Positions 5,693 through 37,032 of a DNA stretch of 40,131 nucleotides are shown in pieces (the stretch's first letter is position 1; each line of letters starts with the position of its first letter). The translations under genes and the position numbers were made by a program. The stretch lies in IMG/VR virus record IMGVR_UViG_3300045391_003787, positions 1 through 40,131 of that record; one strand, 5' to 3'. Under the pieces are notes generated by a model. It made no database searches. It saw nothing but the letters and a program-made list of their open reading frames with translations, and had not been told where the DNA came from. The stretch is from a virus.

Positions 5693-6502
5693 ATGAAACT
5701 CTCGACAGTTATCCCGTCGTATAAAGATCCGAATCTTTTTAAGACTATCGAGGATATTTTAGAGAACAGCGAACTAGGGGATGAGCTAGAGGTCATAGCA
5801 GTTTTTGATGGATATTGGCCAACCGTTCCAGTAATCCAAGATTCTCACGTTAGATACGTCCATTTAGGTAAAAACCGAGGAATGAGAGGAGCAATTAACG
5901 CCGGGGTCGCTGTGGCCCGAGGCGAATTTTTTATGCGCCTGGACGAACACTGTTCTTTTGGTAAGGGATTTGATCGGATCTTAACTAGAGATTGCCAAGA
6001 GAATGAGGTTATGACGGCTCGTCGTTACTTTTTAGATGTCGACAAGTGGGAAGTGATGAAAGATAAGGGATTTGTTGACCATGAAAAGTTATCAATTCAA
6101 AATGTAACCGACACTGTTAAGAAGTTCTCGGGTCGACCCTGGAAAGAACGAGATGAGAAGCAAAAGGATGTGATGCTTTCCGAGACCCAGGCCATGCAAG
6201 GCTCAATGTGGATTGCGAATCGAGAGTTCTACTTAAAGACAGTTGGCGAAATGCAGACCGAAGGTTATGGACCTTTGATTCAGGACTCAGTAGAGGTTTG
6301 CATGAAATACTGGAAGGCTGGTGGACGGTTAATGCTCAATAAAAATACTTGGTTCGCTCACCGCCATCGTGATTTCGGGCGAACTCACAACAACGGCACC
6401 AAAGAGAATCCCGCTAAACAGGATCAGGGTTATAAATACGCACTAGACGTTTGGGGAGATTATTATACTAACGAACTTCTACCCCAATGGTCTAAGTGGT
6501 AG
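5693..6502 (+). CDS. GT-A fold glycosyltransferase with DxH motif (GT2/GT27-like, polypeptide GalNAc-transferase-like)
   Basis: N-terminal VIPSYKD...EVIAVFDG; metal-site motif RLDEHCSF (DEH at 5942..5950); C-terminal block VEVCMKYWKAGGRLMLNKNTWFAHRHR, colinear with the Gal/GalNAc-T motif. It is a paralog of 10619..11605. Confidence 0.7.
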   Translation: MKLSTVIPSYKDPNLFKTIEDILENSELGDELEVIAVFDGYWPTVPVIQDSHVRYVHLGKNRGMRGAINAGVAVARGEFFMRLDEHCSFGKGFDRILTRDCQENEVMTARRYFLDVDKWEVMKDKGFVDHEKLSIQNVTDTVKKFSGRPWKERDEKQKDVMLSETQAMQGSMWIANREFYLKTVGEMQTEGYGPLIQDSVEVCMKYWKAGGRLMLNKNTWFAHRHRDFGRTHNNGTKENPAKQDQGYKYALDVWGDYYTNELLPQWSKW

Positions 6503-6504
6503 CT

Positions 6505-7269
6505 ATGAAAAACCTCTTGGTATTTATAAATCCTCTAAAGACGTTCGAGGGAGCCGACTACTACAAAGAAATACATATCCTAGCGAAGCTGCAGATTGAT
6601 AATAGCCTAGCTTTTGGCTGGAAGCGTGAGGATATTATGATGGTGACTAACTTTCCTTACGAATATAATGGGGTACAAGCTATCGTGGTTCCTGACGAAA
6701 CTTTTGATGCAACCAAGAACACTGTTAGCAAGATCAATGGGATCTTAGCTTTGTTTGATATGGGGCTTATAACTGACGAACTATTTTGGTTCCATGACTT
6801 TGACGCTTTCCAGAACGCTCCTCTAGGAGAAGTAACACTAGGCGACAAGGTACTGGCTCTAACTAACACTACAGTTGATGATAGCCGTCTAAGCACCGGT
6901 GTTCTGTTTTTCTCACAAAGTGCTAGAGATTTATTTACCCAGTTGCAACAAAAGTGTCAGGAGAACTTAGTGAACGAAGAAGTTGGACTGAGACTTTTAC
7001 TCGCTGACCAACCACAACTGCAAGATCAGTTACTACTTTTAAACATCAGCCATAACTTTGCGATCAGAAAACGTCCGGTGGCCGACCAATATCAACAAGC
7101 CGAGAAACCAATAAAAGTTCTCCATTTCCATCCTACTGATAAACGTCTCTGTGATAGTGAACCCACCAAGAACAGTCTTGAGGTGGTATACGGACATAAT
7201 AGTCTAGGCGAATCTCTTTTGGGGGGTGAGTTAGAAGCAAGTTTTTGCAAATATGGTCTGACGGTATGA
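6505..7269 (+). CDS. Putative DxD nucleotide-sugar transferase, paralog family A, copy 1
   Basis: I place the start at ATG 6505 (MKNLL), 3 nt after the upstream stop. The ORF track opens at GTG 6496. Motifs are FWFHDFDAFQN (DxD) and KPIKVLHFHP. It is clearly paralogous to 7266..7997. Confidence 0.55.
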   Translation: MKNLLVFINPLKTFEGADYYKEIHILAKLQIDNSLAFGWKREDIMMVTNFPYEYNGVQAIVVPDETFDATKNTVSKINGILALFDMGLITDELFWFHDFDAFQNAPLGEVTLGDKVLALTNTTVDDSRLSTGVLFFSQSARDLFTQLQQKCQENLVNEEVGLRLLLADQPQLQDQLLLLNISHNFAIRKRPVADQYQQAEKPIKVLHFHPTDKRLCDSEPTKNSLEVVYGHNSLGESLLGGELEASFCKYGLTV

Positions 7270-7997
7270 AGAACCTTTTGTCCTTTACTAATCCTTCTGG
7301 AGAGTTTACCGACGAGGACAAAACACTCGTTAAGATTCATATTGATAACAGCTTAGATTTGGGTTGGAAAAAAGACGACATCTTACTGTTCACCAACTTC
7401 CCTTACGAGTACAACGGAGTTAAAGCTCTACCAGTTCCGGCCTTTGATATAAAGTGGGACAGAACTTCTAATAAAATTCCAGTCATCGAGTATCTACTCC
7501 TTGAGGGAATGTTCCCTGATCTTTACTGGTATCACGATTTTGATGCTTACCAGAATGAACCTTTCGATGAGGCAGAGTTAAGCGGCTTTGATCTTGGTCT
7601 GACCACTTATGGTTATAAGGATCAGATCAATGGTGGTTCATTCTTTTTTCGGGAGAACACTCATGACTTCTTTGATTATCTACTTAATCGTTTGATTCCT
7701 ACTTATCGCACTAGGGCCGATGAAAAGACTATGACTGATATGTGGCGTGAGGGTACTTTAAATAACTGGAACCACAAGATTTTAAACATCACCTATAATT
7801 TCGGTCAGCGTGGACCCAGTCGATGCTACAAACAAGCTGACAAGCCTCTAAAGGTTTTGCATTTCCACCCTTACTATCAGTTCTATCCCCATGACGACAC
7901 CAACATTAACGTCTTCATGCACGGACATAATCAGTGGGGTATTCCCATGATGTCGCAAAGATTAATTGACGTATTTAAGCATCATGGAGTCCAATGA
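7266..7997 (+). CDS. Putative DxD nucleotide-sugar transferase, paralog family A, copy 2
   Basis: MKNLL start at 7266 forms an ATGA overlap with the upstream stop (the track ORF opens at 7245). Motifs shared with copy 1: IDNSL.(F/L)GWK, TNFPYEYNGV, YWYHDFDAYQN, KPLKVLHFHP. Confidence 0.55.
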   Translation: MKNLLSFTNPSGEFTDEDKTLVKIHIDNSLDLGWKKDDILLFTNFPYEYNGVKALPVPAFDIKWDRTSNKIPVIEYLLLEGMFPDLYWYHDFDAYQNEPFDEAELSGFDLGLTTYGYKDQINGGSFFFRENTHDFFDYLLNRLIPTYRTRADEKTMTDMWREGTLNNWNHKILNITYNFGQRGPSRCYKQADKPLKVLHFHPYYQFYPHDDTNINVFMHGHNQWGIPMMSQRLIDVFKHHGVQ

Positions 7998-8664
7998 TCT
8001 AACACTCATAATGCTGACGGCCAACCGAGTACCGGCTGGCTGGGCTGAATTTCATAAAGAAAAACTCCTAGAAGCGGCCCAAGGTAAGCCAATTATTACT
8101 ATTTCCCGTGAGCCTTTAAATTGGGGTATAAACGTCCTTGATACCGAACGGCAGTCTATATCAAATATCTACTTCCAGCTTCTCAGAGGGGCAAAACTAG
8201 CCTCTACACGCTATATAGGAGTGGTTGAGGACGATTGCCTCTATCCAGCCGAGCATTTTGAGTTTAAACCGGCGGATGATGCCTTTTATTACAATGAGAA
8301 TCGCTTCAATGTCTTCACTTGGGGGCGGTCCATGTTTTGCTACAAGAAACGGGTGAGCAATTCTACCTTAATCGCTAATCGAGAATTAGTAATTAAAGCC
8401 TTAGAGGAAAGATTTGCTAAGTGGCCAGACGGAACGCCGACTGGAAACACGGGAGAATTAGGACGAGATAACATCGCTGATAAGTTAGGACTGCCTCATT
8501 ACCCGATGAGACTGTTTGAAACTTACTTTTCTGTAGTTCGAGTTGATCACCAATTAGGGGTAGATAGATTGTCCCGAACTCGTCGCAAAGGACCAGGAAT
8601 GTTAAAATCTTATGAGATCCCTATGTGGGGACGAGCTAAGGATATAGTTAATAAATTCAAATGA
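7984..8664 (+). CDS. Putative glycosyltransferase-like protein, paralog family B, copy 1
   Basis: Probable start at MESNDL (7984); the track ORF opens at 7966. It shares the pattern PII(T/S)(I/V)...P...G.N and acidic-x-D-x-LYP..(H/Y)F (VVEDDCLYPAEHF) with 8661..9332 and 9951..10622. Confidence 0.45.
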   Translation: MESNDLTLIMLTANRVPAGWAEFHKEKLLEAAQGKPIITISREPLNWGINVLDTERQSISNIYFQLLRGAKLASTRYIGVVEDDCLYPAEHFEFKPADDAFYYNENRFNVFTWGRSMFCYKKRVSNSTLIANRELVIKALEERFAKWPDGTPTGNTGELGRDNIADKLGLPHYPMRLFETYFSVVRVDHQLGVDRLSRTRRKGPGMLKSYEIPMWGRAKDIVNKFK

Positions 8665-9332
8665 CCGCCACAATTGTTTATTGCTCTAGTAATAGGGAAG
8701 ACGAAGCCTTCGAGCGAAGGATAAGAGAGTACTTGTTAAAAAACTGTGGGGGGCTACCAATTATTAGTGTCACCCAAAAGCCTACGGATCTTGGAACTAA
8801 TATTTGTGTAGGTGATGATATCGGGGTGTCAGGTTTTAATTTCTTTCGCCAGTGGCAGATTGGTTTAGAGGTCGCCAAAACGGATCTTGTGATTTCTGCC
8901 GAAGCCGATTGTCTTTACCCACCAGATTATTTCCAGTACCGCCCGCCTCGTTTAGACAAGTGCTATCGAAACTCCAACCTCTATGTGATGCCTGATTTGC
9001 GGAGTTTCTTTTTCAAGAAGTCAGAAGGAGCCACACACGCTCAAGTTATCGGACGAGAATTCTTTCTAAATAGATTAAACGAACTTTTCGTAGGAGCTCC
9101 CGAATGGTCGGCTGAGGAAAAGAACTTTCCTAAAGAGAGATGGAAGCAAGAAGATATTTTTTCTGAAGCCGAGATAGAGATGTATGAATCAGAGAACCCC
9201 GTCTTTCAGGTCAAAACCCATAAAGGGATGCGCTATTACACTCATTCAGATCGAACCCCTATCCCCGAGATAAAATATTGGGGCAATGGTACACCACTTC
9301 GTAATTATTTAATTAAAGGAATAGAAATATGA
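8661..9332 (+). CDS. Putative glycosyltransferase-like protein, paralog family B, copy 2
   Basis: ATGA overlap with the upstream gene. Motifs GLPIISVTQKPTDLGTNI and SAEADCLYPPDYF match copies 1 and 3. Confidence 0.45.
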   Translation: MTATIVYCSSNREDEAFERRIREYLLKNCGGLPIISVTQKPTDLGTNICVGDDIGVSGFNFFRQWQIGLEVAKTDLVISAEADCLYPPDYFQYRPPRLDKCYRNSNLYVMPDLRSFFFKKSEGATHAQVIGREFFLNRLNELFVGAPEWSAEEKNFPKERWKQEDIFSEAEIEMYESENPVFQVKTHKGMRYYTHSDRTPIPEIKYWGNGTPLRNYLIKGIEI

Positions 9333-9949
9333 CATTTAAAGAAGGACTAACACACTACGGCTTGCCTTACGAAATACCCGACTGTTCTCGGAATGGGCTG
9401 CCCCAATTCTTGGTAGACTCTGGTTATAAGGTCGGGGCCGAGGTTGGAGTTTATAAAGCCGAGTACTCCGAACGCTTCGCTAAAGTCGGTTTAAAACATT
9501 ATGCCATTGATCCTTGGATGGCTTTCCCGGGACAAGGACGGACCCAAAAGGTTCAGGAGAGACAAGAATTTTTATACGGTCATGCGCAGCGAGTCTTGGC
9601 TCCTTATCCCAACTGCACCATGATTCGTAAAACTTCGATGGATGCTTTAGCTGATTTTGCAGATAACAGTCTTGATTATGTGTACTTGGACGGCGATCAT
9701 TCCTTTCGCTTTGCAGCCGAGGATATAGTGGAATGGTCTAAGAAAGTCCGCCCGGGTGGAATCGTTGCCGGACATGATTATTGGAACACCGGACCCGATA
9801 AGTGGAACGTAGTTTGTCAGGTTAAAGCTGTTTTGGACGCATACATTAAGGTCTTTGAGATTAAGAGCTTTTACATCTATGGCAAGATGCACCCATTAGA
9901 CGAGCAGAAGAAAGACGATAAATTCCACAGTTGGTTATACATCAAATAA
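9329..9949 (+). CDS. Class I SAM-dependent methyltransferase (Methyltransf_24 / TylF-like O-methyltransferase)
   Basis: Motif I-like VGAEVGVYKAEYS and the characteristic YVYLDGDHSFRFAAEDIVEWSKKVRPGGIVAGHDY block. It is embedded in the glycosyltransferase cluster. Confidence 0.7.
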   Translation: MTFKEGLTHYGLPYEIPDCSRNGLPQFLVDSGYKVGAEVGVYKAEYSERFAKVGLKHYAIDPWMAFPGQGRTQKVQERQEFLYGHAQRVLAPYPNCTMIRKTSMDALADFADNSLDYVYLDGDHSFRFAAEDIVEWSKKVRPGGIVAGHDYWNTGPDKWNVVCQVKAVLDAYIKVFEIKSFYIYGKMHPLDEQKKDDKFHSWLYIK

Positions 9950-9950
9950 T

Positions 9951-10622
9951 ATGGATGGAATCCTGTATTACTCCGACAATACTTTTGAGGGGCCAATCTT
10001 CCAAGAGGTTCAAGACATCTTGAGTGGTACAGGATTACCGATCGTTAGCGTGACACTAAAGCCCCTGAAGTTTGGACAGAATATCGTGATGGATTTGCCT
10101 CGTTGTTATCCGACGATGGTTAAACAAATTATTGCTGGTTTGGAAAGTTTGCGAGTGCAGAATGTATTTTTTACTGAGCATGATGTTTTGTACAGCCCGT
10201 CTCATTTCTCGTTTGTTCCTCCTCGTCACGATATCTTTTATTACGATACTAATGTTTGGCGGTGGGATTATCCCAAAGAGAGGTACTTCACCTATGACCG
10301 CCTGCTTTGCTTGTCGATGATGTGTTGTGATAGAAAATTAGCTCTGGAGCATTACAAGAAGCGGTTGGAGATAATTCAAGATAATGGCTGGGATTTTCCT
10401 ACCAAAGGAGAACCAGCTTGGCAACGACGAATGGGCTATGAACCTGGTACTAAAAAGAAAAAGCGAGGGGGATTTACAGATGACGACTTTGAGACTTGGG
10501 CAGCCCCGCACCCTAGTATAGATGTTCGACACAAAGGGACTTTTTCTCCACCTAAAGTTAATTTACAAGATTTTAAATGGGAACCTACCGGCTGGCAGGA
10601 AACCACTATTAAACCTATATGA
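9951..10622 (+). CDS. Putative glycosyltransferase-like protein, paralog family B, copy 3
   Basis: Motifs GLPIVSVTLKPLKFGQNIV and FFTEHDVLYSPSHF align with copies 1 and 2. Confidence 0.45.
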   Translation: MDGILYYSDNTFEGPIFQEVQDILSGTGLPIVSVTLKPLKFGQNIVMDLPRCYPTMVKQIIAGLESLRVQNVFFTEHDVLYSPSHFSFVPPRHDIFYYDTNVWRWDYPKERYFTYDRLLCLSMMCCDRKLALEHYKKRLEIIQDNGWDFPTKGEPAWQRRMGYEPGTKKKKRGGFTDDDFETWAAPHPSIDVRHKGTFSPPKVNLQDFKWEPTGWQETTIKPI

Positions 10623-11605
10623 GAGATATATCAATCGTTATTCCGGCCAGGAACGAGGAGTTCTTAGCCAGAACTATTCAAGACATCTTAGAACACATTG
10701 AAGCCGATACCGAGATCATCGCTGTGTTAGATGGTCAATGGGCAGCCCCACCTATTGTTCAGCATGAACGAGTTAATGTTATCTATGTTCCAGAAGCTGT
10801 CGGACAAAGGGCCGCTGGGAATATTGGAGCTCGATTGGCGCAAGGAAAGTATATCTGGAAGTCTGACGCTCATTGTTCTTTTGATCAAGGGTTTGACCGT
10901 AAGATGTTAGAGTTCTTTAAAGAGGTGGGTGACGACGTAACAGCCGTGCCGATAATGAAGAACCTCCATGTCTTTGATTGGAAATGTTATTCCTGCGGTC
11001 ATAAAGAATATCAAGACAAGTATCCTCAAGCGGAAGACAATGCTTGTAAAAGTTGTGGGGCAAAGAACGTCAAAAAGAAGATGATTTGGCAACCCAAAAA
11101 AGGTACTCATGCTAGAGCTTACTGCTTTGATGCCTCTCCTAAATTTGGCTACTTCGAGCCATGGGAACACACTCCTGAGTACAAGAAAGACTTAGCAGAG
11201 AAAGGGTATACCGAATCCATGAGTTTACAGGGTAGTTGCTTTGTCTTAACTAAAGAAAAGTACTTCTCTCTACCAATTTGTGATGAAACGCTAGGTAATT
11301 GGGGAAACCAGGGAATCGAAGTTGCCTGTAAAACCTGGCTGTCTGGTGGACGTGTCTTAGTAAACCATAAGACCTGGTACGCTCATTGTTTTAGAACTAA
11401 ATCTGAGTTTGGTTTTCCCTGGCCGGTGTCCGGACGGGATCAAGAGAAAACCAAGAAGAACGTCAGGGATCTTTTGTGGGAAGGAAAGTTCGATAAAGCT
11501 GTCCGTCCAGTGAGTTGGTTGGTAGAAAAGTTCTGGCCAGTGCCAGGTTGGACCGAAGCAGACCTAAAACAGCTCAAAGAACACGAAGCAAATCTTCGTA
11601 AATAG
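10619..11605 (+). CDS. GT-A fold glycosyltransferase with DxH motif (GT2/GT27-like, polypeptide GalNAc-transferase-like) carrying an inserted Cys4 zinc ribbon
   Basis: SIVIPARNEE...EIIAVLDG; KSDAHCSF (DAH at 10865..10873); GNWGNQGIEVACKTWLSGGRVLVNHKTWYAHCFR, resembling WGGENxExSFRxWxCGG...GHxFR; inserted CYSC..(18 aa)..CKSC at 10985..11056. Confidence 0.7.
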   Translation: MRDISIVIPARNEEFLARTIQDILEHIEADTEIIAVLDGQWAAPPIVQHERVNVIYVPEAVGQRAAGNIGARLAQGKYIWKSDAHCSFDQGFDRKMLEFFKEVGDDVTAVPIMKNLHVFDWKCYSCGHKEYQDKYPQAEDNACKSCGAKNVKKKMIWQPKKGTHARAYCFDASPKFGYFEPWEHTPEYKKDLAEKGYTESMSLQGSCFVLTKEKYFSLPICDETLGNWGNQGIEVACKTWLSGGRVLVNHKTWYAHCFRTKSEFGFPWPVSGRDQEKTKKNVRDLLWEGKFDKAVRPVSWLVEKFWPVPGWTEADLKQLKEHEANLRK

Positions 11606-11664: not shown

Positions 11665-14538
11665 ATGGCTAGAATACACCAATCAGGAGCTGAACATAAC
11701 TCAGTTGTTGATGGAATTGACGACATAATTAGTGCTGGTGCAACCATTGTCACGACCCCTGTCTTGGGTAGTCGTTATGCTTGGAAATTAACTAGTGCGT
11801 CAGGAGCTTCATCAGTAGCATCTTACGCTCGTTTCGGTCACGCCAATTCAACCGGAGCAGCGGTTTATTATAAATGGGATTTTCAAGTAGATACTACTGG
11901 AGCGTTCTGGTTGTGTCAGTTTGCTTTTGGAACAACAAAGCGTGGTGGAATTAGATTTACAGGGGGAAAGTTACAATTAGCAACAGATATTACAACGGGC
12001 GTTGGGGCAACTTCGGTATCTGTTACCACTGGAGTTTGGCACACCTGTCAGGCTAAGTATGATGCGGCAACGGGAAATGCAGAATTTTATTTAGATGGGG
12101 TTCTGGTTGATACCGGACAAAACGTAACCACCGCCGGAAATAATGTAGACAATCTTTATATTGGTCAGTTTCAGCCAGTCAATAGCAATATGTACGTTGA
12201 TAATATTATTGTCAACGATACTACTGGTGCTAATGAGACTGGGTATCCGGCAAGGGGTGAGAGATTTGTAATTCTCTACCCCAATGCCGTAATGACCGAA
12301 GCGGCTACCGTGGGTGGTGCGCCTGGAGATGTTTATTTTAGAACCTCGGCAGGTGGTGCAGGGTCCGGTACAACATCTAACTGGAATCAAGTTGAGGAAA
12401 CCGATCCTGATGGTGATACTTCTTACGTTAGGAAAAACGCTAGTGAATCTAACCGTGATTGGTATCCGGTAGAAGATATTGCCACAGTTGGGTTTCCAGC
12501 AACGACAGATGAGGTGAATGTTGTAGCGGTTGGTGGTTATGTTGGAGGGAACGGAACCACCGATAGGTTCTTTAGGTATTTATACGAAACAGCAGCCGGA
12601 GCAACCGGGCTTCAGCGGTCCGCCAGCGTCAACGCCAACGTCAACGCTTATTTCCTATATAAAATTGGCGGTGTTGCTGGTGCTGACCAACAGTTACTTT
12701 CTTATCCTTCGGGTTCCGTTGGATCAGACCTAGATACCTATCAAATTGGTTGGGAAGCTAACGACGCTAACGCCCGTCAAATAAAGGGCTCAGCTTTTTG
12801 GCTGGAAGTTTCTTATATCGCTTCGGGTGTTTCTACTTCCCCTTCAGTCTCACCATCAATCTCTAAATCACCGTCCGTCTCTCCGTCCGTATCCGTCTCC
12901 CCCTCGGTTTCGGTCAGCCCTAGTATTTCTAAATCCCCTTCGGTTTCGCCGTCGGTATCACCATCGGTATCAGTCTCTCCAAGTATCTCCGTCTCTCCAA
13001 GTGTTTCAAAATCACCGTCAATTTCACCTTCCGTAAGTCCGAGTGTCTCCGTGTCCCCCAGCGTAAGTGTTAGTCCCTCGGTTTCTAAATCCCCTTCCAT
13101 CAGTCCGAGCGTTAGCCCCTCGGTATCAGTCTCCCCCTCAGTATCAGTTAGCCCAAGCTCTAGTTTATCTCCCAGCGAATCTCCTTCCGTTTCGCCCTCG
13201 GTTTCCACCTCCCCGTCCGTTAGTGTCTCACCTAGTGGTTCTCTATCACCTAGTATCTCACCAAGCGTTAGTCCCTCAGCTTCGACAAGTCCTTCGATTA
13301 GCGTCTCGCCGTCGTCGTCTTTATCTCCCTCGATCAGTCCTTCCATCTCACCTAGTTCGTCAGAAAGTCCCTCCATCAGTCCAAGTTCTTCGATCAGCCC
13401 GTCGGTGTCCCCATCGGTATCGGTGTCTCCATCAATCAGTGTTTCACCCTCGGTTTCTGTATCTCCCAGTTCTTCTCTATCACCCTCCCTTTCTCCGAGC
13501 GTTAGCCCCTCCGTCAGTGTTTCTCCTTCTGTTTCAACCTCTCCTTCGGTTTCTACTTCCCCATCTGTTTCTGTTTCACCTTCAAGTTCAATATCGCCTA
13601 GCGTATCGCCATCTAGTAGTGCGTCTCCATCTGTTAGCCCTTCGGTTAGTACCTCGCCTAGCGTTTCCACAAGTCCTTCGATTAGTGTTAGCCCTAGCAG
13701 TTCTGAGTCACCCAGTGTCTCACCGTCTTCATCTTTATCACCGTCTGTCTCTCCGAGTGTTTCTACCAGCCCTTCAATCTCTGTATCCCCAAGTTCGTCA
13801 GAGTCTCCTTCCGTTTCGCCTTCCAGTAGTGTCTCTCCTTCCGTAAGTCCAAGCGTAAGTACTTCACCTTCCGTCTCAGTTTCTCCTAGTGTTTCAACCT
13901 CGCCTAGTAGTTCATTAAGCCCCAGCATTAGCCCCTCTGTAAGTCCCAGCTCTAGTGAATCACCATCAGTCAGTCCCTCCTCATCAACTTCGCCCAGTGT
14001 CAGCCCCAGTGTCTCCACTTCCCCATCAGTTAGTACTTCCCCATCAGTAAGTGTCTCACCGTCGTCTTCTATTAGTCCCAGTGTCAGCCCGTCGGTTTCC
14101 ACTTCACCCTCACTTAGCCCTAGTGTCAGCACTAGTCCCTCAGTCTCGGTGTCGCCGAGTAGTTCACTTAGTCCATCTACGTCGCCATCGGTCTCAGTAA
14201 GTCCATCAACATCGCCGAGCGTTTCCGTTTCACCCAGCGTCAGCGAATCCCCCTCCATCAGTCCATCTATTAGTGCTAGTCCCAGTACCTCCCCCTCGGT
14301 ATCAGTATCACCTTCGGAATCCCCAAGTCTCAGTCCCTCAGTCTCTCCGAGTATCTCTTTTAGTCCTTCAATATCCCCATCGCCCTCTGCTCCAGCCTTT
14401 ACAGCTACTTTATATGAATGGAACGGCACTATTTGGATAAAGAAAGTTATGAAGTATTACAATGGGTCAGTTTGGATTAATAAGCCCCTTTACTATTGGG
14501 ACGGGTCAGCGTGGGTTGCTGTAGATAATTTAGGCTAA
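11665..14538 (+). CDS. Large virion surface or fibre protein: N-terminal LamG/concanavalin-like domain, (Ser-X)n tract of about 520 aa, and short aromatic C-terminal repeats
   Basis: 957-aa ORF. The N-terminal roughly 385 aa has a LamG-like pattern (WHTCQAKYD..GNAEFYLDGVLV...NLYIGQF...MYVDNIIVND). Residues about 389-908 have Ser at every second position. The C-terminus has three Y-x-(W/Y)-(N/D)-G-(S/T)-x-W units. Confidence 0.8.
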   Translation: MARIHQSGAEHNSVVDGIDDIISAGATIVTTPVLGSRYAWKLTSASGASSVASYARFGHANSTGAAVYYKWDFQVDTTGAFWLCQFAFGTTKRGGIRFTGGKLQLATDITTGVGATSVSVTTGVWHTCQAKYDAATGNAEFYLDGVLVDTGQNVTTAGNNVDNLYIGQFQPVNSNMYVDNIIVNDTTGANETGYPARGERFVILYPNAVMTEAATVGGAPGDVYFRTSAGGAGSGTTSNWNQVEETDPDGDTSYVRKNASESNRDWYPVEDIATVGFPATTDEVNVVAVGGYVGGNGTTDRFFRYLYETAAGATGLQRSASVNANVNAYFLYKIGGVAGADQQLLSYPSGSVGSDLDTYQIGWEANDANARQIKGSAFWLEVSYIASGVSTSPSVSPSISKSPSVSPSVSVSPSVSVSPSISKSPSVSPSVSPSVSVSPSISVSPSVSKSPSISPSVSPSVSVSPSVSVSPSVSKSPSISPSVSPSVSVSPSVSVSPSSSLSPSESPSVSPSVSTSPSVSVSPSGSLSPSISPSVSPSASTSPSISVSPSSSLSPSISPSISPSSSESPSISPSSSISPSVSPSVSVSPSISVSPSVSVSPSSSLSPSLSPSVSPSVSVSPSVSTSPSVSTSPSVSVSPSSSISPSVSPSSSASPSVSPSVSTSPSVSTSPSISVSPSSSESPSVSPSSSLSPSVSPSVSTSPSISVSPSSSESPSVSPSSSVSPSVSPSVSTSPSVSVSPSVSTSPSSSLSPSISPSVSPSSSESPSVSPSSSTSPSVSPSVSTSPSVSTSPSVSVSPSSSISPSVSPSVSTSPSLSPSVSTSPSVSVSPSSSLSPSTSPSVSVSPSTSPSVSVSPSVSESPSISPSISASPSTSPSVSVSPSESPSLSPSVSPSISFSPSISPSPSAPAFTATLYEWNGTIWIKKVMKYYNGSVWINKPLYYWDGSAWVAVDNLG
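12831..14388 (+). repeat. Coding tract for strictly alternating Ser-X repeats (SPSVSPSVSVSPS...)
   Basis: Read directly from the translation. The DNA copies are degenerate, with all six Ser codons and all four Pro codons used within the first 100 nt. Confidence 0.95.
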
Positions 14539-30159: not shown

Positions 30160-30729
30160 ATGTCTTACCAAGACGACGAGGAGTTGGACTCTCAAAACCA
30201 ACCGACAGAGGAAGTCGTAAACACCGAAGTAGTCGAGACAACTGACGCAGAGCCAGAAGTCGAGGACACCCAGCCCGAGTACACGGAAGCCGAAAAGAAG
30301 GCTTATGCTCGAGCGAAGAAGGCGGAAGCTGAATTGAAAGCCTTAAAAGCACAATTAAAGCCCGCACCAAAAGAACCAGTACCCACCCCATCGGGGCTCG
30401 GTTCACTCTCACCAGTACAACTTGCCAGAGATTCTAAAGCCATAGCTGATCTCGTAGACGAAGACGTAGATTACGTCGCTACCTATGCGGATAAGTTTGG
30501 CGTAACACTCTCGGAAGCACGCAAAAATAAAGACGTGCAAGCGGTACTAAGAGTTAGAGCTGAAGAACGTCGTACCGCCGAGGCTACCTCAACAGGTAAT
30601 GCTCGACGGGGAACGAGTAAAATGTCTGATGATTCTTTAATGGCGAAAGCTGAGGCTGGTGACATACCAACTGATACCGACTCCTTAATGAGAATTGCTC
30701 AGGCTAGGCTCAAAAAAATGAAGCAGTAA
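30160..30729 (+). CDS. Scaffolding protein
   Basis: 189 aa with an acidic N-terminus and charged helical repeats (AEKKAYARAKKAEAELKALKAQLK), lying directly upstream of the capsid gene. Confidence 0.6.
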   Translation: MSYQDDEELDSQNQPTEEVVNTEVVETTDAEPEVEDTQPEYTEAEKKAYARAKKAEAELKALKAQLKPAPKEPVPTPSGLGSLSPVQLARDSKAIADLVDEDVDYVATYADKFGVTLSEARKNKDVQAVLRVRAEERRTAEATSTGNARRGTSKMSDDSLMAKAEAGDIPTDTDSLMRIAQARLKKMKQ

Positions 30730-30829: not shown

Positions 30830-31639
30830 GTGGCCCTGCGTACCGCTCTTGTAGCGGAGAAGATCTGTGAAGTAGACCGCTCGGATGCTAAAACTATCCA
30901 GGCTCCTTACTTAACAGCTCCTTCGACCGTAGTTCAGGCCTTGGCGGGTACTTACACCCCTAACGCCGTAACTACCACCGACGACACATTAACAGTTTCC
31001 GACGAAGTAGTGGTCGCCACCCACGTCTTTGGCTTTGAGGATATAATCTCGAAGTTTGACTTGTTTGCGGCCTTTACTGAGGAACAGAACTTTGCGGTGG
31101 CCAAAGCTATCGATAAGTACGTTCTAAACGTAATCTTAGAAGCGGGTACTGGTTCCTACACCACGCCTGCTGGTGGTTTCACAACCGCCGCTAACATCAA
31201 CGTAATCATGTCTAACCTTATCGCTAAGGTGGCTGGTTACTCAGACTCTTACAAGGGTCTATTCCTCGTCATTGAAAACACTGACGTTCCTGGATTCATC
31301 CAGGCTCAGGCGACCAATGGTTTCTCCTTCGCTGACGCTGCGCTAAACAACGGTTGGATGACTTCCTACATGGGAGTCGACATCTACGTTGTCCGGGCTG
31401 CCACCTTCGAAGATGACACCACGACCAGTGATTCTGGATCGCAGACTTGGACCAACCTTGGCCACCGTTTGTTCGGTGTTAAGGGTGTCGCCACTTATGC
31501 TGCACCTCGAGGTCTTCAATTCGAGGAAAAAGGTGTTACTGGAAAGACAGGTAAGGAAATTGTCACTTACGGCTTGATTGGTGCCAAAGTTTGGACCCCA
31601 AAGTCTGATTTGATTGTCGATATTACTTTGACTTCCTAG
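30830..31639 (+). CDS. Major capsid protein (start uncertain; the reading frame is open from 30752)
   Basis: The gene follows the scaffold, and its size and composition fit a capsid subunit. GTG 30830 is the first canonical start, but it lacks an SD and 26 in-frame sense codons precede it. Confidence 0.6.
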   Translation: MALRTALVAEKICEVDRSDAKTIQAPYLTAPSTVVQALAGTYTPNAVTTTDDTLTVSDEVVVATHVFGFEDIISKFDLFAAFTEEQNFAVAKAIDKYVLNVILEAGTGSYTTPAGGFTTAANINVIMSNLIAKVAGYSDSYKGLFLVIENTDVPGFIQAQATNGFSFADAALNNGWMTSYMGVDIYVVRAATFEDDTTTSDSGSQTWTNLGHRLFGVKGVATYAAPRGLQFEEKGVTGKTGKEIVTYGLIGAKVWTPKSDLIVDITLTS

Positions 31640-31672: not shown

Positions 31673-32095
31673 ATGGCACTACCACAAGGAAATAACCCTA
31701 CATTAGATGGAATCTGGTTCCGTCCGGCGGTGCTGACGGCTGATGACGCAACGCCAACAGTTGTTGGCCAGAACACAATCCCGATGGGTTGTCGCTCAGT
31801 CAACGTCACGGCAGTTCAAAACGATGCGAATGATTGGATTACTTTGCCAGCTCTTTCGTCTGTTCCAACGGGTCATCGTATAGTCATTTGTTGTAATGCG
31901 GCCTCTAACTTCGAGTTAAGAACCCCCGCCACTTCCAACGAAAAGATTAACAACGTGGACTCCGATGGCACGAATGAATATCTGTGTACTGATACCGATG
32001 TCGTTATTGTTACCAAAATGAGTGATACCGCAGGCTGGATGGCTTACGAGTACACCAAATTAGGCGCCGTCGTTTCGGCTGTTATTCCTGATTAA
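31673..32095 (+). CDS. Putative capsid decoration or head-surface protein, paralog 1 (no repeat tail)
   Basis: 140 aa, colinear with the first 140 aa of the next gene (MAL..G.NP.LDG..., LP.LS.VP.GH.I, LRTPA.SN.KIN.VD.DG.N, GW.A.E.T.LGAVV.AV.P). Confidence 0.55.
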   Translation: MALPQGNNPTLDGIWFRPAVLTADDATPTVVGQNTIPMGCRSVNVTAVQNDANDWITLPALSSVPTGHRIVICCNAASNFELRTPATSNEKINNVDSDGTNEYLCTDTDVVIVTKMSDTAGWMAYEYTKLGAVVSAVIPD

Positions 32096-32106
32096 TTGCA
32101 TTACCT

Positions 32107-32844
32107 ATGGCACTCTCAAGTGGAACTAACCCGGTATTAGACGGAGTGAGGGTGACTGCAAATGGAATCACAGCTACTAACGTCGAATCCGGTCTAAACC
32201 AAATCTATCCTCAAGTACAATCGGTTAATATTAGTGGAATCACTAACGCTGAGTCAGACTTTGTTGTCCTGCCTTTGCTTAGTGACGTACCGGTAGGTCA
32301 TCACATCATCATCAACAATCAATCTGGCTATAACATTTATTTGCGAACGCCAGCTTCAAGTAATAACAAGATTAATGATGTCGACTGTGACGGTGCTAAC
32401 CAGTACCCCCTAACTAAAACGAATGTCTTAGAGTTAATCAAAAGAGATGGTACGGGTGGTTGGGTTGCTTTAGAGCACACCAACTTGGGTGCGGTGGTAA
32501 CAGCGGTGGTTCCGGCGGCTCATTCCTTGAGTCCGTCGGCTTCACCGTCGGCTTCACCATCTGTCTCACCTTCCGTGTCAGCGTCGCCTTCTAGGAGTCC
32601 AAGTATCTCACCATCAGTGTCACCGTCAGCGTCTTTGTCGCCAAGCGTGTCACCATCAGTCTCGGTCTCTCCGTCGGTTTCGCTATCACCAAGTAAATCG
32701 CCGTCCGTCTCACCAAGTGCGTCAACTTCACCAAGTTCTTCGGCTTCTCCGTCCGTGTCACCGTCGGTGTCAAAATCACCTTCTCTGTCACCTTCAATTT
32801 CGCCGTCGATCTCGCCAAGTTTCTCGCCCTCACAAAATCCGTAA
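32107..32844 (+). CDS. Putative capsid decoration or head-surface protein, paralog 2, with a 105-aa C-terminal (Ser-X)n tail
   Basis: The first 140 aa are paralogous to 31673..32095. The C-terminus reads SLSPSASPSASPSVSPSVSASPS...SPSFSPSQNP. Confidence 0.6.
   Translation: MALSSGTNPVLDGVRVTANGITATNVESGLNQIYPQVQSVNISGITNAESDFVVLPLLSDVPVGHHIIINNQSGYNIYLRTPASSNNKINDVDCDGANQYPLTKTNVLELIKRDGTGGWVALEHTNLGAVVTAVVPAAHSLSPSASPSASPSVSPSVSASPSRSPSISPSVSPSASLSPSVSPSVSVSPSVSLSPSKSPSVSPSASTSPSSSASPSVSPSVSKSPSLSPSISPSISPSFSPSQNP
32527..32841 (+). repeat. Coding tract for alternating Ser-X repeats
   Basis: Read from the translation of 32107..32844. Confidence 0.9.
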
Positions 32845-32921
32845 ACAACTTAATATCTTCTTTGGGCTGGGCAGTCACCTGGTCAGCCCTCTAGAGGACA
32901 TTAACCTCTTAAATAACTCTT

Positions 32922-33635
32922 ATGCAGTTTAATTCTAATGCGGACAGCCAAGATATAGTCCACGAAGTCTTGAAAATTTGTGATACCAGCACGAACAGCT
33001 ATCCGGTGGTTGATATCACTCGTCGCTGTAACACCGCCTTGGATCGTTTCTGGTTTTTAGCCATGACCTCTAATGGGTTGTGGCAGGTTGATGATCTAAA
33101 TAACTCCACCACTCTGCCGATTGGCACGACTAACGTGGTTTCTGGGCAGTATGATTACTCCCTGGCCTCCGATGTACTATTGATTGAGAAGGTTTTATGC
33201 AAAGATGCTAATGGAAATTGGCAAGAACTCGAGCCAGTCGACGTAACTGACTCCAAAAACGAGTCTCGAAACATCTGGACTCGTCCTTCTAGCAACTCTG
33301 GCTCGCCAACTAAGTACGATTTGGTGGCTAATTCCTTGTTACTTGATCCAGTCCCTAACTATAACTCGACCAATGGCTTAAAAGTGGTCTTCCAACGAGG
33401 CCCAAGTTACTTCGATACTGATGACAATACTAAAACTCCAGGCATTCCGGTTATTTTCCATACTTATATCGCTCGCTATGCTGCTCTGCAGTTTTTGATA
33501 GAAAAAAGACTCCCGGCTGTGCAAGGAATCGCTCAATTAGTAGCGGAAGATGAAGCCGCTATCAAAGATTGGTACGCTTTTAGAAATAAAGCTACTCGTA
33601 CTCGCTTAACAGTGCGGCAAGAAAGTAATAGGTAA
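32922..33635 (+). CDS. Virion structural protein of unknown role (237 aa)
   Basis: ORF between the head and tail genes. An adaptor or connector role is only a positional guess. Confidence 0.6.
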   Translation: MQFNSNADSQDIVHEVLKICDTSTNSYPVVDITRRCNTALDRFWFLAMTSNGLWQVDDLNNSTTLPIGTTNVVSGQYDYSLASDVLLIEKVLCKDANGNWQELEPVDVTDSKNESRNIWTRPSSNSGSPTKYDLVANSLLLDPVPNYNSTNGLKVVFQRGPSYFDTDDNTKTPGIPVIFHTYIARYAALQFLIEKRLPAVQGIAQLVAEDEAAIKDWYAFRNKATRTRLTVRQESNR

Positions 33636-33636
33636 T

Positions 33637-36600
33637 ATGCGAATGGCCAAGAAGAACATTGGCCCATTCCTCGCTTTCAACAGGGTTTGGTTCGTAATCA
33701 ACCAAAAGCGATTACTCTGGTTACTTAACTCCAAGTTAACCCGGCGATGGTTCCGCCGGGTACTTTGCATTGATGAAACTTTAGACATTGAGGAGATCTT
33801 CCCCAATTCTTATAAGGTTCATTTGATTGGAAACGTCTATAAGCAAGATTTCAGAACTCACGCAAAATATGGGAAGCGTATTTATCTTGCCTTTAAACCT
33901 TTATGGTGGGTAATTCACTACTGGGATGAACTTTTTGCTGATAGATATGCTCCTGAATGGAGTTATGGATTTACTACTTTAACAGTATTTCCTGACCCCA
34001 ACGCAGAGACTACCTCTGTCGATGGTTCTACGACAAGAAGTACTGCCGAGGCATGGGCTACCAAACGAGCAGCGGCCGCATCTAACACCGCCCAAGATAG
34101 TGCTACTACTGCTTACTTTGCACGCCTCACTTCCAATGGAACCCCTCAGTGGACAAACATGGATAGGGGATTCTTTTTGTTTGATACTTCTGCATTAGGT
34201 GCAACAGCCATTGTCGCTAGTGCAACATTTTCTATTTCCGGCGATAGTGGTGGTACTACCTTAGATCAATATAGTCAGGATTATTGTTTAGTTAGTTCTT
34301 CTCCGGCATCTAATACAGTTATTTCTACTGGGGATTACGACCAAGTGGGATCAACAGATTTTATAACCCGCGTTTCTTGTGGGTCTTGGAATGATACGGC
34401 GTATAATGATCACGCTTTAAATTCAAGTGGTATCGCAGCGATTTCGTTGACGGGTGTAACTAAGTTTGGAACTCGTCTTTCTGGAGATTTAGATAATGTA
34501 GAACCTAGTATTGGCGCTGGTGGGTTGAACTCTCGTGTAAGGTGTATTTTTGCAGACAACGCAGGAACAGCTAGTGATCCTAAGTTGGTAATTACTTATA
34601 CGTTGTCGTCTACCTCTCCTTCCGTCTCACCGTCTGTTAGCGTAAGTCCGTCTGTTTCCGTATCCCCATCCGTTTCAGTTTCTCCTAGCTCGTCTCTATC
34701 GCCCTCGGTTTCTCCGAGTGTGTCACCCAGTGTCTCAGTCTCCCCCTCGATAAGTGTGTCACCCAGTGTCAGTACCAGTCCATCAATTTCCGTTTCACCT
34801 AGCAGTTCTTTATCGCCGTCTGTTTCCCCTAGTAGCTCGGCTAGCCCGTCGGTGTCGCCTTCCGTTAGTGTATCGCCTAGCGTATCAAAGTCACCATCCA
34901 TATCACCCTCCATTTCCCCATCAGTGTCAGTAAGTCCATCAATTTCCGTTAGCCCCTCGGTATCAGTTTCACCTAGTATCTCTGTTTCACCTTCAGTTTC
35001 CGTTTCACCATCTAGTAGTCTATCTCCCTCCATCAGCCCGTCTGTTTCCCCAAGTGCAAGTGTATCTCCATCTGTCTCGGTATCCCCGTCAAGTTCTTTA
35101 TCACCATCTATCTCACCATCGGTATCACCCAGCGTTTCAGTATCACCTTCTGCTTCTGTTAGTCCTAGTAGCTCTTTAAGTCCCTCAATCAGTCCAAGTA
35201 TCTCACCATCAGTAAGTGTTAGCCCGTCTGTTTCCGTTTCACCATCTTCATCACTCTCACCATCTGTAAGCCCCTCGGTATCCCCTTCCGTCAGTGTTTC
35301 ACCGAGTGTCAGTGTTTCACCTTCTTCCTCTCTATCGCCATCCATCAGTCCGTCTGTCTCTCCTTCGGTATCTACTAGCCCATCAATTTCCGTTAGCCCC
35401 TCATCTTCTTTATCTCCATCAATATCACCTAGCGTTAGTCCGAGCGTTTCTGTGTCTCCGAGTGTTAGTGTTAGTCCATCCTCGAGTTTATCGCCAAGTG
35501 TTTCACCATCGGTCTCTCCCTCAGTATCAACTTCTCCAAGTGTTAGCGTCTCACCGTCGTCTTCACTTTCTCCATCAATAAGTCCGTCGGTGTCACCGTC
35601 GGTATCGGTCAGTCCATCAGTCTCAGTTAGCCCCTCTTCAAGTTTATCACCGAGCATATCGCCCTCCATCAGTCCATCCGTTTCGGTATCTCCATCGACC
35701 TCGGTGAGTCCATCTGTAAGTGTATCTCCATCGGTTTCTACTTCTCCATCAGTCTCAGTCTCCCCCAGCGTTTCCGTATCACCATCCTCTTCATTATCTC
35801 CCTCGATCTCACCGTCGGTTTCCCCGAGTGCTAGTACATCACCTAGTGCTTCTGTTTCTCCTTCTGAAAGTGTCTCTCCCAGCTCCTCGCTTAGTCCGAG
35901 TATTTCGCCCTCTGTATCACCCTCGGTTAGTACCTCACCTTCTGTTTCAGTCTCACCTTCTGTTAGTGTATCGCCAAGTTCTAGTTTGTCCCCTAGCATT
36001 TCTCCTAGTGTAAGCCCTTCTGTTTCTACAAGCCCAAGCGTCTCCGTCAGCCCTTCGGTAAGCACTTCCCCCTCCTCATCATTATCACCGTCCATAAGTC
36101 CATCAGTATCGCCCTCAGTTTCAATCAGCCCATCGGTATCACCCTCTGTCTCCGCTAGTCCGTCAGTAAGTCCTTCATCGTCACTCTCACCTTCCATTTC
36201 GCCATCAGTAAGCCCCAGTGTTAGTGTTTCACCTAGTGCTTCAGTATCTCCCAGCGTCTCAACTTCGCCTTCCGTTAGTACCTCACCATCCGTGTCGACT
36301 AGTCCTTCCGTTTCACCTTCCGTTAGTGTTTCTCCGTCAGTTTCACCGTCAGTCAGTAAATCTCCCAGTATTAGTCCATCAGTGTCTCCTTCGGTGTCGG
36401 TATCACCTAGTGTTTCCGTCTCTCCCTCTGTTAGCGTCAGTCCATCCGTTAGTCCGTCGGCCTCTCGGAGTCCCTCAGCTTCGCCTTCTTTCTCACCATC
36501 CAAGAGTCCAAGTATCTCCCCGTCCTTCTCGCCCTCTAGGAGTCCGTCGGTCTCCGTTTCTCCATCCGTCTCTACTAGTCCGACACCCTCATCTTCGGTT

Positions 36601-37032
36601 TCGCCTAGCATCAGTGTCTCCCCATCTATTTCGGTATCACCTAGTTCCTCTCCTTCACCCTCTCCAGGTGGGCATAATTGGACAAATCAAGACCAAAACC
36701 ACAGTTCGTGGACCAATCAAGATAAGAATTCAAGTAGTTGGACTAATCAGGATAAAGTAACAAGTACCTGGGAGAATCAGAGTAAAGTAACCAGTAACTG
36801 GGAGAATCAAGATAAGAATTCGAGTGCCTGGAGTAACCAAGTAAAGGTTGTTAGTACTTGGGAGAATCAGGATAAAATGGCAAGTTCGTGGACTAATCAG
36901 GATAAAAACTCGTCTAATTGGTCAAATCAGAGTAAAATTACTAGTAGTTGGTCTAATCAAAGCAAGAATCCAAGTACCTGGGAGAATCAAGATAAGGACC
37001 CTAGCACTTGGGATAACCAGGATAAAAGTTAA
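33637..37032 (+). CDS. Very large virion surface or fibre protein: N-terminal globular domain of about 320 aa, (Ser-X)n tract of about 690 aa, then about 12 Trp-containing decapeptide repeats
   Basis: 1131-aa ORF. The repeat organisation was read directly from the translation. Confidence 0.8.
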   Translation: MRMAKKNIGPFLAFNRVWFVINQKRLLWLLNSKLTRRWFRRVLCIDETLDIEEIFPNSYKVHLIGNVYKQDFRTHAKYGKRIYLAFKPLWWVIHYWDELFADRYAPEWSYGFTTLTVFPDPNAETTSVDGSTTRSTAEAWATKRAAAASNTAQDSATTAYFARLTSNGTPQWTNMDRGFFLFDTSALGATAIVASATFSISGDSGGTTLDQYSQDYCLVSSSPASNTVISTGDYDQVGSTDFITRVSCGSWNDTAYNDHALNSSGIAAISLTGVTKFGTRLSGDLDNVEPSIGAGGLNSRVRCIFADNAGTASDPKLVITYTLSSTSPSVSPSVSVSPSVSVSPSVSVSPSSSLSPSVSPSVSPSVSVSPSISVSPSVSTSPSISVSPSSSLSPSVSPSSSASPSVSPSVSVSPSVSKSPSISPSISPSVSVSPSISVSPSVSVSPSISVSPSVSVSPSSSLSPSISPSVSPSASVSPSVSVSPSSSLSPSISPSVSPSVSVSPSASVSPSSSLSPSISPSISPSVSVSPSVSVSPSSSLSPSVSPSVSPSVSVSPSVSVSPSSSLSPSISPSVSPSVSTSPSISVSPSSSLSPSISPSVSPSVSVSPSVSVSPSSSLSPSVSPSVSPSVSTSPSVSVSPSSSLSPSISPSVSPSVSVSPSVSVSPSSSLSPSISPSISPSVSVSPSTSVSPSVSVSPSVSTSPSVSVSPSVSVSPSSSLSPSISPSVSPSASTSPSASVSPSESVSPSSSLSPSISPSVSPSVSTSPSVSVSPSVSVSPSSSLSPSISPSVSPSVSTSPSVSVSPSVSTSPSSSLSPSISPSVSPSVSISPSVSPSVSASPSVSPSSSLSPSISPSVSPSVSVSPSASVSPSVSTSPSVSTSPSVSTSPSVSPSVSVSPSVSPSVSKSPSISPSVSPSVSVSPSVSVSPSVSVSPSVSPSASRSPSASPSFSPSKSPSISPSFSPSRSPSVSVSPSVSTSPTPSSSVSPSISVSPSISVSPSSSPSPSPGGHNWTNQDQNHSSWTNQDKNSSSWTNQDKVTSTWENQSKVTSNWENQDKNSSAWSNQVKVVSTWENQDKMASSWTNQDKNSSNWSNQSKITSSWSNQSKNPSTWENQDKDPSTWDNQDKS
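34606..36666 (+). repeat. Coding tract for alternating Ser-X repeats with a 26-residue super-repeat (SPSSSLSPS[IV]SPS[VI]SPSVS[VT]SPS[VIA]SV)
   Basis: The central part shows at least eight consecutive 26-aa units, each beginning SPSSSL. There is a single Thr-for-Ser exception near the end. Confidence 0.95.
36679..37029 (+). repeat. About 11.7 tandem 30-bp (10-aa) repeats, W-[TESD]-N-Q-[DSV]-K-x-x-S-x
   Basis: WTNQDQNHSS WTNQDKNSSS WTNQDKVTST WENQSKVTSN WENQDKNSSA WSNQVKVVST WENQDKMASS WTNQDKNSSN WSNQSKITSS WSNQSKNPST WENQDKDPST WDNQDKS. Confidence 0.95.

Follow-up and report, generated by a model that had tools for sequence, protein, structure and literature searches.

Paired knob-domain genes between the capsid and adaptor genes of a short-tailed phage, one with a long Ser-X tail: putative virion-surface proteins and a linked glycosyltransferase cluster

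The T7 head protein occurs with and without a C-terminal extension (10B and 10A), both forms being mixed on one capsid, and in phi29 the capsid gene is followed by that of the head fibre gp8.5, an appendage of the capsid that the phage can do without. Long Ser-X repeats, in which serine alternates with a variable residue X, are known from Fap1, GspB and other serine-rich repeat proteins (SRRPs) and from ClfA and SdrC/D; they are O-glycosylated by linked dedicated glycosyltransferases and form extended stalks. In mycobacteriophages, as Freeman et al. are said to have reported in 2023, C-terminal extensions of virion subunits are the presumed targets of phage-encoded glycosyltransferases. Here we analyse the IMG/VR virus record IMGVR_UViG_3300045391_003787, a complete contig of 40,131 bp with the layout of a short-tailed phage in family scans of its open reading frames (ORFs). 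In this stretch (hereafter, the window), two adjacent paralogous genes follow the major capsid protein gene, and only the second one encodes a long Ser-X tail.

Several described structures resemble parts of this locus. In the Anabaena cyanopodophage A4, gp25 consists of an N-terminal anchor and a beta-sandwich similar to a carbohydrate-binding module; it is located outside the podophage capsid, and two roles were proposed for it, stabilising the capsid and binding glycans of the host (PMC12002296). In the Pseudomonas phage Pa223, the first ∼40 residues of gp52 are the sole capsid anchor and the distal part is a knob described as a TNF fold (PDB 9ny6; 10.1101/2025.06.11.659172). The Kuravirus SU10 encodes gp9 (major capsid protein), gp10 (putative minor capsid protein), gp11 (adaptor) and gp12 (long tail fibre) (PMC9509320). 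The TLP-2 glycofibril, found in pond water by CryoSeek, is a single linear dipeptide-repeat chain of unknown genetic origin; one residue of the repeat is conserved, carries a glycan and was modelled as Ser, the other is variable, the glycan is joined via a phosphodiester, and the helical rise and twist are 6.2 Å and 108.7 degrees (10.1101/2025.09.30.679562). The serine-rich repeat glycoprotein family is covered in PMC5866549, and mycobacteriophage virion glycosylation is mentioned in PMC11256854.

The two window genes are built on one module, a ∼20-residue arm with the motif NPxLDG followed by a ∼115-residue all-beta knob. The features of the pair are as follows.

31673..32095, + strand: short paralogue, 140 amino acids (aa), N-terminal arm and all-beta knob
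31673..31720, + strand: N-terminal arm of the short copy (MALPQGNNPTLDGIWF), a putative anchor; the NPxLDG motif is common to the long copy
31943..31969, + strand: KINNVDSDG loop of the short copy, pattern N-x-D-x-D-G, conserved in the family alignment
32107..32844, + strand: long paralogue, 245 aa, knob and (Ser-X)n tail
32107..32514, + strand: knob domain of the long copy (aa 1-136), family profile positions 1-139, E 1.8e-54
32368..32394, + strand: KINDVDCDG loop of the long copy, retained in the comparison of conserved positions
32524..32835, + strand: strict (Ser-X)52 tract (aa 140-243); the residues NP after it end the protein

A preliminary description of this DNA had proposed that the pair is homologous, lies 3′ of the capsid gene and carries a tail in the second copy only. 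All of this was borne out: the ORF coordinates are exact, the gene upstream matches a major head protein family (phrog_267), BLASTP aligned residues 1-131 of the short protein with residues 1-128 of the long one with 61/133 identities (46%, E = 5e-35), and the first copy terminates with ...SAVIPD-stop. A profile hidden Markov model (HMM) of the family covers both proteins end to end, with E 7.7e-74 for the short paralogue and 1.8e-54 for the long one. The order of a short copy and then a long copy with a Ser-X tail of 96-126 aa was also found in the relatives L001, L002, L003 and L009 (L numbers denote loci and P numbers proteins), which shows that the arrangement is neither an assembly artefact nor a chance ORF.

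The likeness to T7 is limited. T7 10A/10B arise by a −1 frameshift in one major capsid gene, whereas the window has two diverged accessory-protein genes; a frameshift relation between them was ruled out, since the ORFs are separate and both have a start codon and an N-terminal arm of their own. The same description had envisaged a tunable mix of bare and tailed subunits. This idea is unsupported: both genes are on the + strand with 11 nt between them, a consensus scan called no promoter or terminator in the gap, and nothing points to a regulated ratio of the two proteins. A GC-rich hairpin (GGGCTG ... CAGCCC, 32864-32889) is located 20 nt past the long paralogue's stop codon; it lacks a T-run and was not called by the terminator scan.

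The knob domain defines a large family. With the short paralogue as query, a word-indexed protein search produced 311 homologues, all ∼135-145 aa long and none annotated, and an exhaustive profile search produced 421 cluster representatives at E ≤ 1e-3 (121 of them at E ≤ 1e-30). In the databases searched, all members came from metagenomes. The domain shared by the paralogues has no model in Pfam, PHROGs or NCBIfam; for these proteins Pfam and PHROGs returned only sub-threshold noise (Cj1289-like_C and phrog_4770), and neither paralogue matched PF09956 Phage_cement_2 at E ≤ 0.1. Invariant residues of the family are concentrated in the segment RTP...S..KIN..D.DG. Over 54 sequences, I92, N93, D96 and D98 of the loop are invariant and K91 and G99 are nearly invariant; in the arm, P9 and G13 are almost invariant in the family alignment. 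The N-x-D-x-D-G loop resembles a Ca2+ site of the DxDxDG type and may be a candidate for one.

An AlphaFold2 model of the short paralogue, made with 54 sequences, is all-beta, with a predicted local distance difference test (pLDDT) value of 89 and a predicted template-modelling score (pTM) of 0.82; the first 20 residues are less confident (pLDDT 56-77). Among PDB structures, the neighbours identified by Foldseek are weak and include the capsid-spike chain of Pa223 (E 9e-3 and a template-modelling score, TMq, of 0.45), a phage baseplate component and 6o38, which we take to be the Mu tail-fibre/chaperone complex. Neighbours in BFVD (TMq 0.5-0.6) include many regions of tail-fibre and collagen-repeat proteins, which are probably C-terminal knobs, as well as small orphan proteins of phages and giant viruses. 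No immunoglobulin-like (Ig-like) protein was among the significant PDB or BFVD matches of the pLDDT-89 model, and no Pfam Ig/BIG match was found; an Ig-like fold is described for SU10 gp10 and for the gp8.5 base (PMC9509320), while the window knob has a different all-beta fold. A 40-residue match between the family and VP3 of foot-and-mouth disease virus (E 0.05) is at chance level and was dismissed as evidence of a PDB relative.

In overall design, a small anchor plus a beta-sandwich, the window knobs are similar to A4 gp25, although a search of the family profile against the PDB detected no sequence similarity. The A4 locus differs as well: the gp25 gene lies apart from the capsid gene, and there is no paralogue pair and no Ser-X tail. 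The likeness to Pa223 gp52 is weak and structural only, and a jelly-roll of the TNF/C1q type is no more than a candidate topology for the window knob; in gp52 a triple beta-helix shaft joins anchor and knob, and there is no Ser-X tract.

The position of the pair in the head module is given by the genes around it.

26037-27260, + strand: terminase large subunit (Pfam Terminase_3/3C)
27263-29110, + strand: portal (phrog_332, E 2.3e-5; 51-81% identity to the same-position gene in relatives)
30160-30729, + strand: scaffold-like protein, named by position alone (family matches not significant)
30830..31639, + strand: major capsid protein (PHROG major head protein phrog_267, E 2.4e-8)
32922..33635, + strand: head-to-tail adaptor (Pfam PF24175 SU10_adaptor, E 3.7e-7, exceeding the gathering score)
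33637..37032, + strand: 1131-aa protein, placed as the long tail fibre is in SU10 (by comparison with the gene order gp11/gp12)

PHROGs labels phrog_332, the family matched by the portal gene, as 'head-tail adaptor' in the category connector. The capsid protein has a weak PDB match, the P-SCSP1u capsid protein; its gene may start upstream of 30830, given that the capsid proteins of relatives have 288-301 aa.

We scanned 80 IMG/VR loci and several loci from Logan, NCBI and ENA with the family HMM and the window proteins. In ∼45 podophage loci that share the portal, the capsid protein and/or the adaptor, a knob gene is located between the capsid gene and the adaptor gene, nearly always as one untailed copy, and the gene immediately 5′ of it is 56-89% identical to the window capsid gene. 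This is the genome slot of SU10 gp10, from the capsid gene to an SU10-type adaptor. Homologues of the portal, capsid protein and adaptor are also present in L136, L137, L139 and L141, where the slot has other content and no knob gene; the gene is therefore accessory.

Outside the podophage group, the domain is almost always at the extreme C-terminus of longer proteins. It is fused to PF09956 Phage_cement_2 in P0139, P0146, L043 and L081, above the gathering cut-off, and in L044 just below it; phrog_20430 spans the same region in L012, L017, L020 and L021. The cement-knob fusion gene of L004 is flanked by a gene for a ClpP-type prohead protease and by a 325-aa gene in the position of the capsid gene; lambda gpD is encoded at the corresponding place. 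A model of the cement-knob fusion, of medium confidence (pLDDT 69), had as its best PDB matches capsid decoration proteins (HFTV1, the phi29 gp8.5 base, phiCD508, Sf11, Adjutor, TW1 and YSD1), and the Pa223 spike chain (root-mean-square deviation 3.8 Å over 123 columns) was among its best matches too, as it was for the knob model; a PDB profile search with the fusion alignment gave nothing significant. In the window proteins, a short arm takes the place of the cement domain that precedes the homologous knob in these other phages. The fusions indicate that the domain can be displayed on capsids, which is not proof for the two window proteins.

The domain has other partners as well. It is C-terminal in P0222, a right-handed beta-helix, pectate-lyase-like protein of tailspike type, and in P0264, a repetitive fibre-like protein of 1072 aa; P0167 contains two tandem copies. 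Since it also caps fibre- and tailspike-like proteins, the domain alone cannot fix a location. In the longer, fused homologues the family profile aligns only from about position 8-38, so the NPxLDG arm (∼20 residues) is specific to the stand-alone forms. Taken together, the gene fusions suggest that the domain is a mobile distal surface module of phage particles.

Among the first 85 sources scanned, a short copy together with a Ser-X-tailed copy was found only in the window, L001, L002, L003 and L009; L008 has two knob copies, both untailed. Neighbour-joining placed the tailed copies in a single clade (bootstrap 78), to which the orphan proteins P0121-P0123, P0181 and P0282 also belong. The tailed P0265 clusters with the untailed second copy of L008 (bootstrap 83), which indicates that tails were gained or lost more than once. 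We then compared 42 positions for which conservation among single-copy orthologues is at least 85%. Of these, 40-42 are kept in short copies and 24-36 in tailed copies; the window values are 40 and 31. Changes that recur in tailed copies are NDANDW to NAESDF, NFELRTP to NIYLRTP and EYLCTDT to QYPLTKT; the arm, RTP and the DxDG loop are retained. Most relatives have the gene once and without a tail, and it is the short copy that is its conserved orthologue. The long copy stems from an old duplication; it retains the arm, the fold and the DxDG loop, and its presumed functional surface has changed. With changes at 6-18 of the 42 positions, its knob is that of a diverged duplicate, not of the short protein with a tag added. 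The pair had been seen as a natural experiment with and without a tag; tailed and tract-free paralogues do adjoin, but with knobs diverged to this extent the comparison is imperfect.

The tail of the long copy begins after ...GAVVTAVVP and has 109 residues, of which 104 (residues 140-243) are in strict alternation. Ser occupies 52 of the 53 positions of one register, far beyond chance; the other register is made up of Pro (23), Val (10), Ala (6), Leu (4), Ile (3), Lys (2) and single other residues. Each of the six Ser codons occurs and Tandem Repeats Finder (TRF) reported just two 2-copy 12-nt repeats, which means that it is the protein in which the periodicity is maintained. The mixed codons and the conservation in relatives ruled out that the tail arose by DNA slippage or is an artefact of assembly. 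The tail invariably starts straight after ...VVP; the junction VVPxAHSLSPS and a window-like ending also occur in L001, L003 and P0123, and the ending SPSFSPSxNP is found in several relatives.

Two larger window proteins have tracts of the same kind, so that the window encodes three Ser-X proteins, of 245 aa (52 dipeptides), 1131 aa (329) and 957 aa (260). The corresponding features, with the gene cluster discussed below, are as follows.

34609-36582, + strand: (Ser-X)329 tract of the 1131-aa protein, after the N-domain and before C-terminal WxNQDK repeats
11665..14538, + strand: 957-aa Ser-X protein, directly 3′ of the glycosyltransferase (GT2) cluster
12832-14391, + strand: (Ser-X)260 tract of the 957-aa protein
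5693..11605, + strand: nine-gene cluster (Pfam PF00535 twice, PF13578 once)

The variable residue is alike in all three tracts (fraction of Pro 0.38-0.42, of Val 0.19-0.35), and Pro recurs at every second or third dipeptide. Of the 85 sources, only the five tailed loci have tracts of 10 dipeptides or more; the gene after the adaptor, at the fibre position, has a Ser-X tract in 5/5 tailed loci and in 0/80 others.

The 1131-aa and 957-aa proteins follow one plan, a globular N-domain of ∼325-390 aa, the tract and a small C-terminal domain. The 1131-aa protein ends in about twelve 10-residue W-x-N-Q-[DS]-K repeats (TRF periods 30/60/90 at 36703-36912) and the 957-aa protein in a 48-residue aromatic-rich segment. 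At 13-14 kb and 35-36 kb the tracts also make both the GC and the AT skew strongly negative. Two long reverse-strand ORFs, 34596-36611 (−, 671 aa) and 12813-14429 (−, 538 aa; GETEGDTDG...), are mirror images of the tracts and almost certainly no genes.

The tract of the long copy is similar to the long strict dipeptide regions of serine-rich repeat and Sdr proteins. NCBIfam models of ClfA/Sdr and ser_rich type match it only weakly, by composition and far below their cut-offs. The window Ser-X proteins have no signal peptide, LPXTG anchor or accessory Sec system, and no Sec genes were found among the ORFs scanned; the long copy begins with a knob and ends with ...SPSQNP. The variable residue is mainly Pro or Val rather than the Ala, Glu or Asp of SRRP/Sdr repeats, the linked enzymes are GT2 and a methyltransferase rather than GtfA/B or SdgA/B, and the context is a phage virion. 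The Ser-X tail is thus an analogue of the SRRP/Sdr repeats, not a member. For phage proteins with Ser-X dipeptide tracts, no description was found in the searchable literature; the only lead was the CryoSeek glycofibril.

The nine-gene cluster is a candidate modification machinery. Its order is GT2, five ORFs without a family match, Methyltransf_24, one further ORF and a GT2 with a zinc ribbon; the five unannotated ORFs gave nothing in Pfam, PHROGs, NCBIfam or a phmmer search of the PDB. The cluster is conserved in L089 (the same contig as L001) and in L090 (the NCBI assembly that holds L003), and in L090 a Ser-X gene again follows it. A 146-aa collagen-triple-helix protein (5222-5662) is encoded immediately 5′ of the window cluster, and much larger collagen-like genes occupy that place in relatives (L135 12982-16957, L138 13290-15692).

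Linkage of enzymes and tracts was assessed on 38 IMG/VR contigs of 10-113 kb with a homologue of the second GT2 (L091-L128), with 80 knob-family loci as control. In 34/38 contigs a Ser-X tract is found no more than 10 kb from the GT2 homologue, compared with 1/80 of the knob-family loci (Fisher p = 5e-24), and in 27/38 contigs the tract gene starts at most 2.5 kb downstream on the same strand. The longest tract has ∼1500 residues in a 1919-aa protein (L097 14718-20477). No knob-family member was found within 10 kb in any of the 38 loci, so the system of repeat and enzymes is much wider than the paralogue pair. In seven of these loci, C-terminal Ser-X tails of 76-174 residues are attached to small globular domains with no apparent likeness to the knob, encoded at the following positions.

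L107 2729-3658: tailed small-domain gene
L109 3644-4423: tailed small-domain gene
L117 3479-4264: tailed small-domain gene
L120 3237-3929: tailed small-domain gene
L121 683-1549: tailed small-domain gene
L124 750-1619: tailed small-domain gene
L125 4477-5445: tailed small-domain gene

By eye, these small domains are of several different types. The sequences suggest that the Ser-X tail may behave as a portable module on different virion proteins.

Among tract-free relatives, L134, L141 and, in part, L131 and L139 have no cluster homologue at the syntenic place in the available sequence. A search for the glycosyltransferase region of relatives with the M23 peptidase as anchor retrieved none, and p485 as anchor was partly successful. 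The second GT2 (10619-11605) has 4681 homologues at E ≤ 1e-20, many of them 60-68% identical. The few named ones come from metagenome-assembled genomes (MAGs) of Patescibacteria, the Candidate Phyla Radiation (CPR): Patescibacteria group bacterium and Candidatus Curtissbacteria. This would be consistent with a CPR bacterium as the host, or with a gene widespread in CPR-associated phages. A scan of genome contigs for the host gave four MAG contigs from unrelated phyla and was uninformative in this respect.

The window has in common with the mycobacteriophage systems that phage glycosyltransferase genes occur with C-terminal Ser/Thr-rich extensions of putative virion proteins: it has two GT2 genes and three Ser-X proteins, with the linkage described above. 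In mycobacteriophages, capsid and tail-tube subunits with short C-terminal stretches are concerned, whereas in the window it would be a duplicated accessory protein and fibres with tracts of 100-650 residues; host group and enzymes differ too.

We propose that the two proteins are virion-surface accessory proteins, arm-anchored knobs on the capsid, the second with a glycosylated Ser-X filament; as a whole, this explanation appears to us probable by a narrow measure. The N-terminal arm would anchor the knob on the capsid exterior, as in A4 gp25 and Pa223 gp52. Enzymes of the cluster would O-glycosylate the Ser-X tract inside the infected cell, and the modified tract would form a stiff, sugar-coated extended filament. 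Since the arm is common to both copies, they may occupy equivalent sites or be co-assembled, and the particle would then show bare knobs beside knobs with glycan filaments; such a coat might serve for adhesion, shielding or spacing. At the 6.2 Å per dipeptide of TLP-2, the tail would be ∼32 nm long and the two large tracts ∼160 and ∼200 nm.

Capsid decoration, already suggested in the preliminary description, is the best-supported location and on present evidence a reasonably likely one: the slot is conserved in ∼45 loci and cement fusions occur elsewhere. The location is nevertheless unproven, and a number of observations weigh against it or against the explanation as a whole. Sequence searches found the knob family absent from GenBank phages (blastn with DNA of the window region gave no match there, nor did tblastn with the capsid protein, the short paralogue and a cement-fusion homologue); the family profile has no sequence-level relative in the PDB, and the Foldseek matches of the fold are weak (TM 0.4-0.6). 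Other observations point to the tail or neck, where the arm might attach the knobs to the adaptor, the nozzle or the fibres, with the knobs serving as small side fibres or as tips that bind the receptor. The genes are at the boundary of the head and tail modules, directly 5′ of the adaptor gene; the domain is the tip at the C-terminus in the tailspike-like P0222 and the fibre-like P0264; most of its best structural neighbours are distal tail-fibre knobs; and gp10 of SU10, which fills the same slot, was not observed on the capsid of that phage (PMC9509320). We still regard a tail or neck location as unlikely, given that at least four cement-domain fusions pass the Pfam gathering score and the L004 fusion is at the lambda gpD position, that in the ∼45 related loci the gene is always after the capsid gene and before the adaptor gene, never among the fibre genes, and that separate fibre-like proteins are already encoded downstream. 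A role outside the virion, as assembly factors for capsid or fibres or as binders of host or environmental glycans released at lysis, would fit the small size of the proteins and the lack of the gene in some relatives. It is very improbable, however: the gene is part of a structural late operon, between two virion genes and with no promoter or terminator called in the interval, cement, fibre and spike proteins contain this domain as a covalent part, and a long Ser-X tail is of no obvious use to a chaperone.

O-glycosylation of the tail by the cluster enzymes, which had been put forward earlier as putative, is plausible from the gene linkage (34/38 against 1/80, with the cluster kept in both tailed relatives checked) and from the analogy with SRRP/Sdr systems; the support is thus genomic linkage and analogy, and the glycosyltransferase region of untailed relatives is only partly covered by sequence, both of which count against the proposal. 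The tail could instead be an unglycosylated, flexible hydrophilic spacer or bristle, with the cluster acting elsewhere, e.g. on a host surface polysaccharide in seroconversion or superinfection exclusion. GT2 enzymes of temperate phages often modify host surface polysaccharide, and phage GT2 genes commonly modify host O-antigen. The closest relative (short paralogue 77% identical) encodes a phage integrase and an ERF recombinase on one contig (L089 17251-19754, the contig of L001), and the phage group is therefore probably temperate; this, too, speaks against our proposal, as does the cellular (Patescibacteria) origin of the closest named homologues of the second GT2. Yet the linkage is position-specific (34/38 within 10 kb, 27/38 directly downstream), a protein-level periodicity with mixed codons suggests a recognised motif more than a generic linker, and heavily glycosylated Ser-dipeptide precedents exist in serine-rich repeat and Sdr proteins and in TLP-2. 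An unglycosylated tail therefore seems to us rather unlikely.

A more specific version of the proposed glycosylation is that the tracts are protein cores of TLP-2-type glycofibrils, each a single extended chain in which every other residue bears a large glycan, with the phages encoding both the core and a nine-gene modification cluster. Such fibrils are so far known only as orphan filaments from pond water. The window Ser-X pattern fits the dipeptide description of TLP-2, which is a lead and not a test; TLP-2 has no link to phages, and the length and sequence of the fibril are unknown. We consider this version doubtful and quite improbable. If it were true, glycan filaments of ∼30 nm would cover the particle beside fibres of 160-200 nm, which would amount to a bacteriophage with a mucin-like glycocalyx of viral making, and a genetic source would be found for one class of glycofibrils in the environment.

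What is new here is a surface-knob protein family and an arrangement of repeats and enzymes for putative virion modification. The duplicated pair provides an experimental handle, as it combines a small soluble domain carrying a 104-residue substrate tract, a tract-free paralogue and a nine-gene cluster, though diverged knobs make a control necessary. If the proposed explanation is correct, a family so far confined to metagenomes would gain a working assignment as a mobile surface knob, displayed on capsids through an arm or a cement domain, or on fibre tips. Virion glycosylation would extend from the mycobacteriophage examples to a mucin-like or serine-rich-repeat-like scale. The larger story, beyond the paralogue pair, is the Ser-X/glycosyltransferase system: the combination of Ser-X tracts with GT2 and methyltransferase genes, present in dozens of viral contigs, would be a candidate genetic origin of glycofibrils with a dipeptide core.

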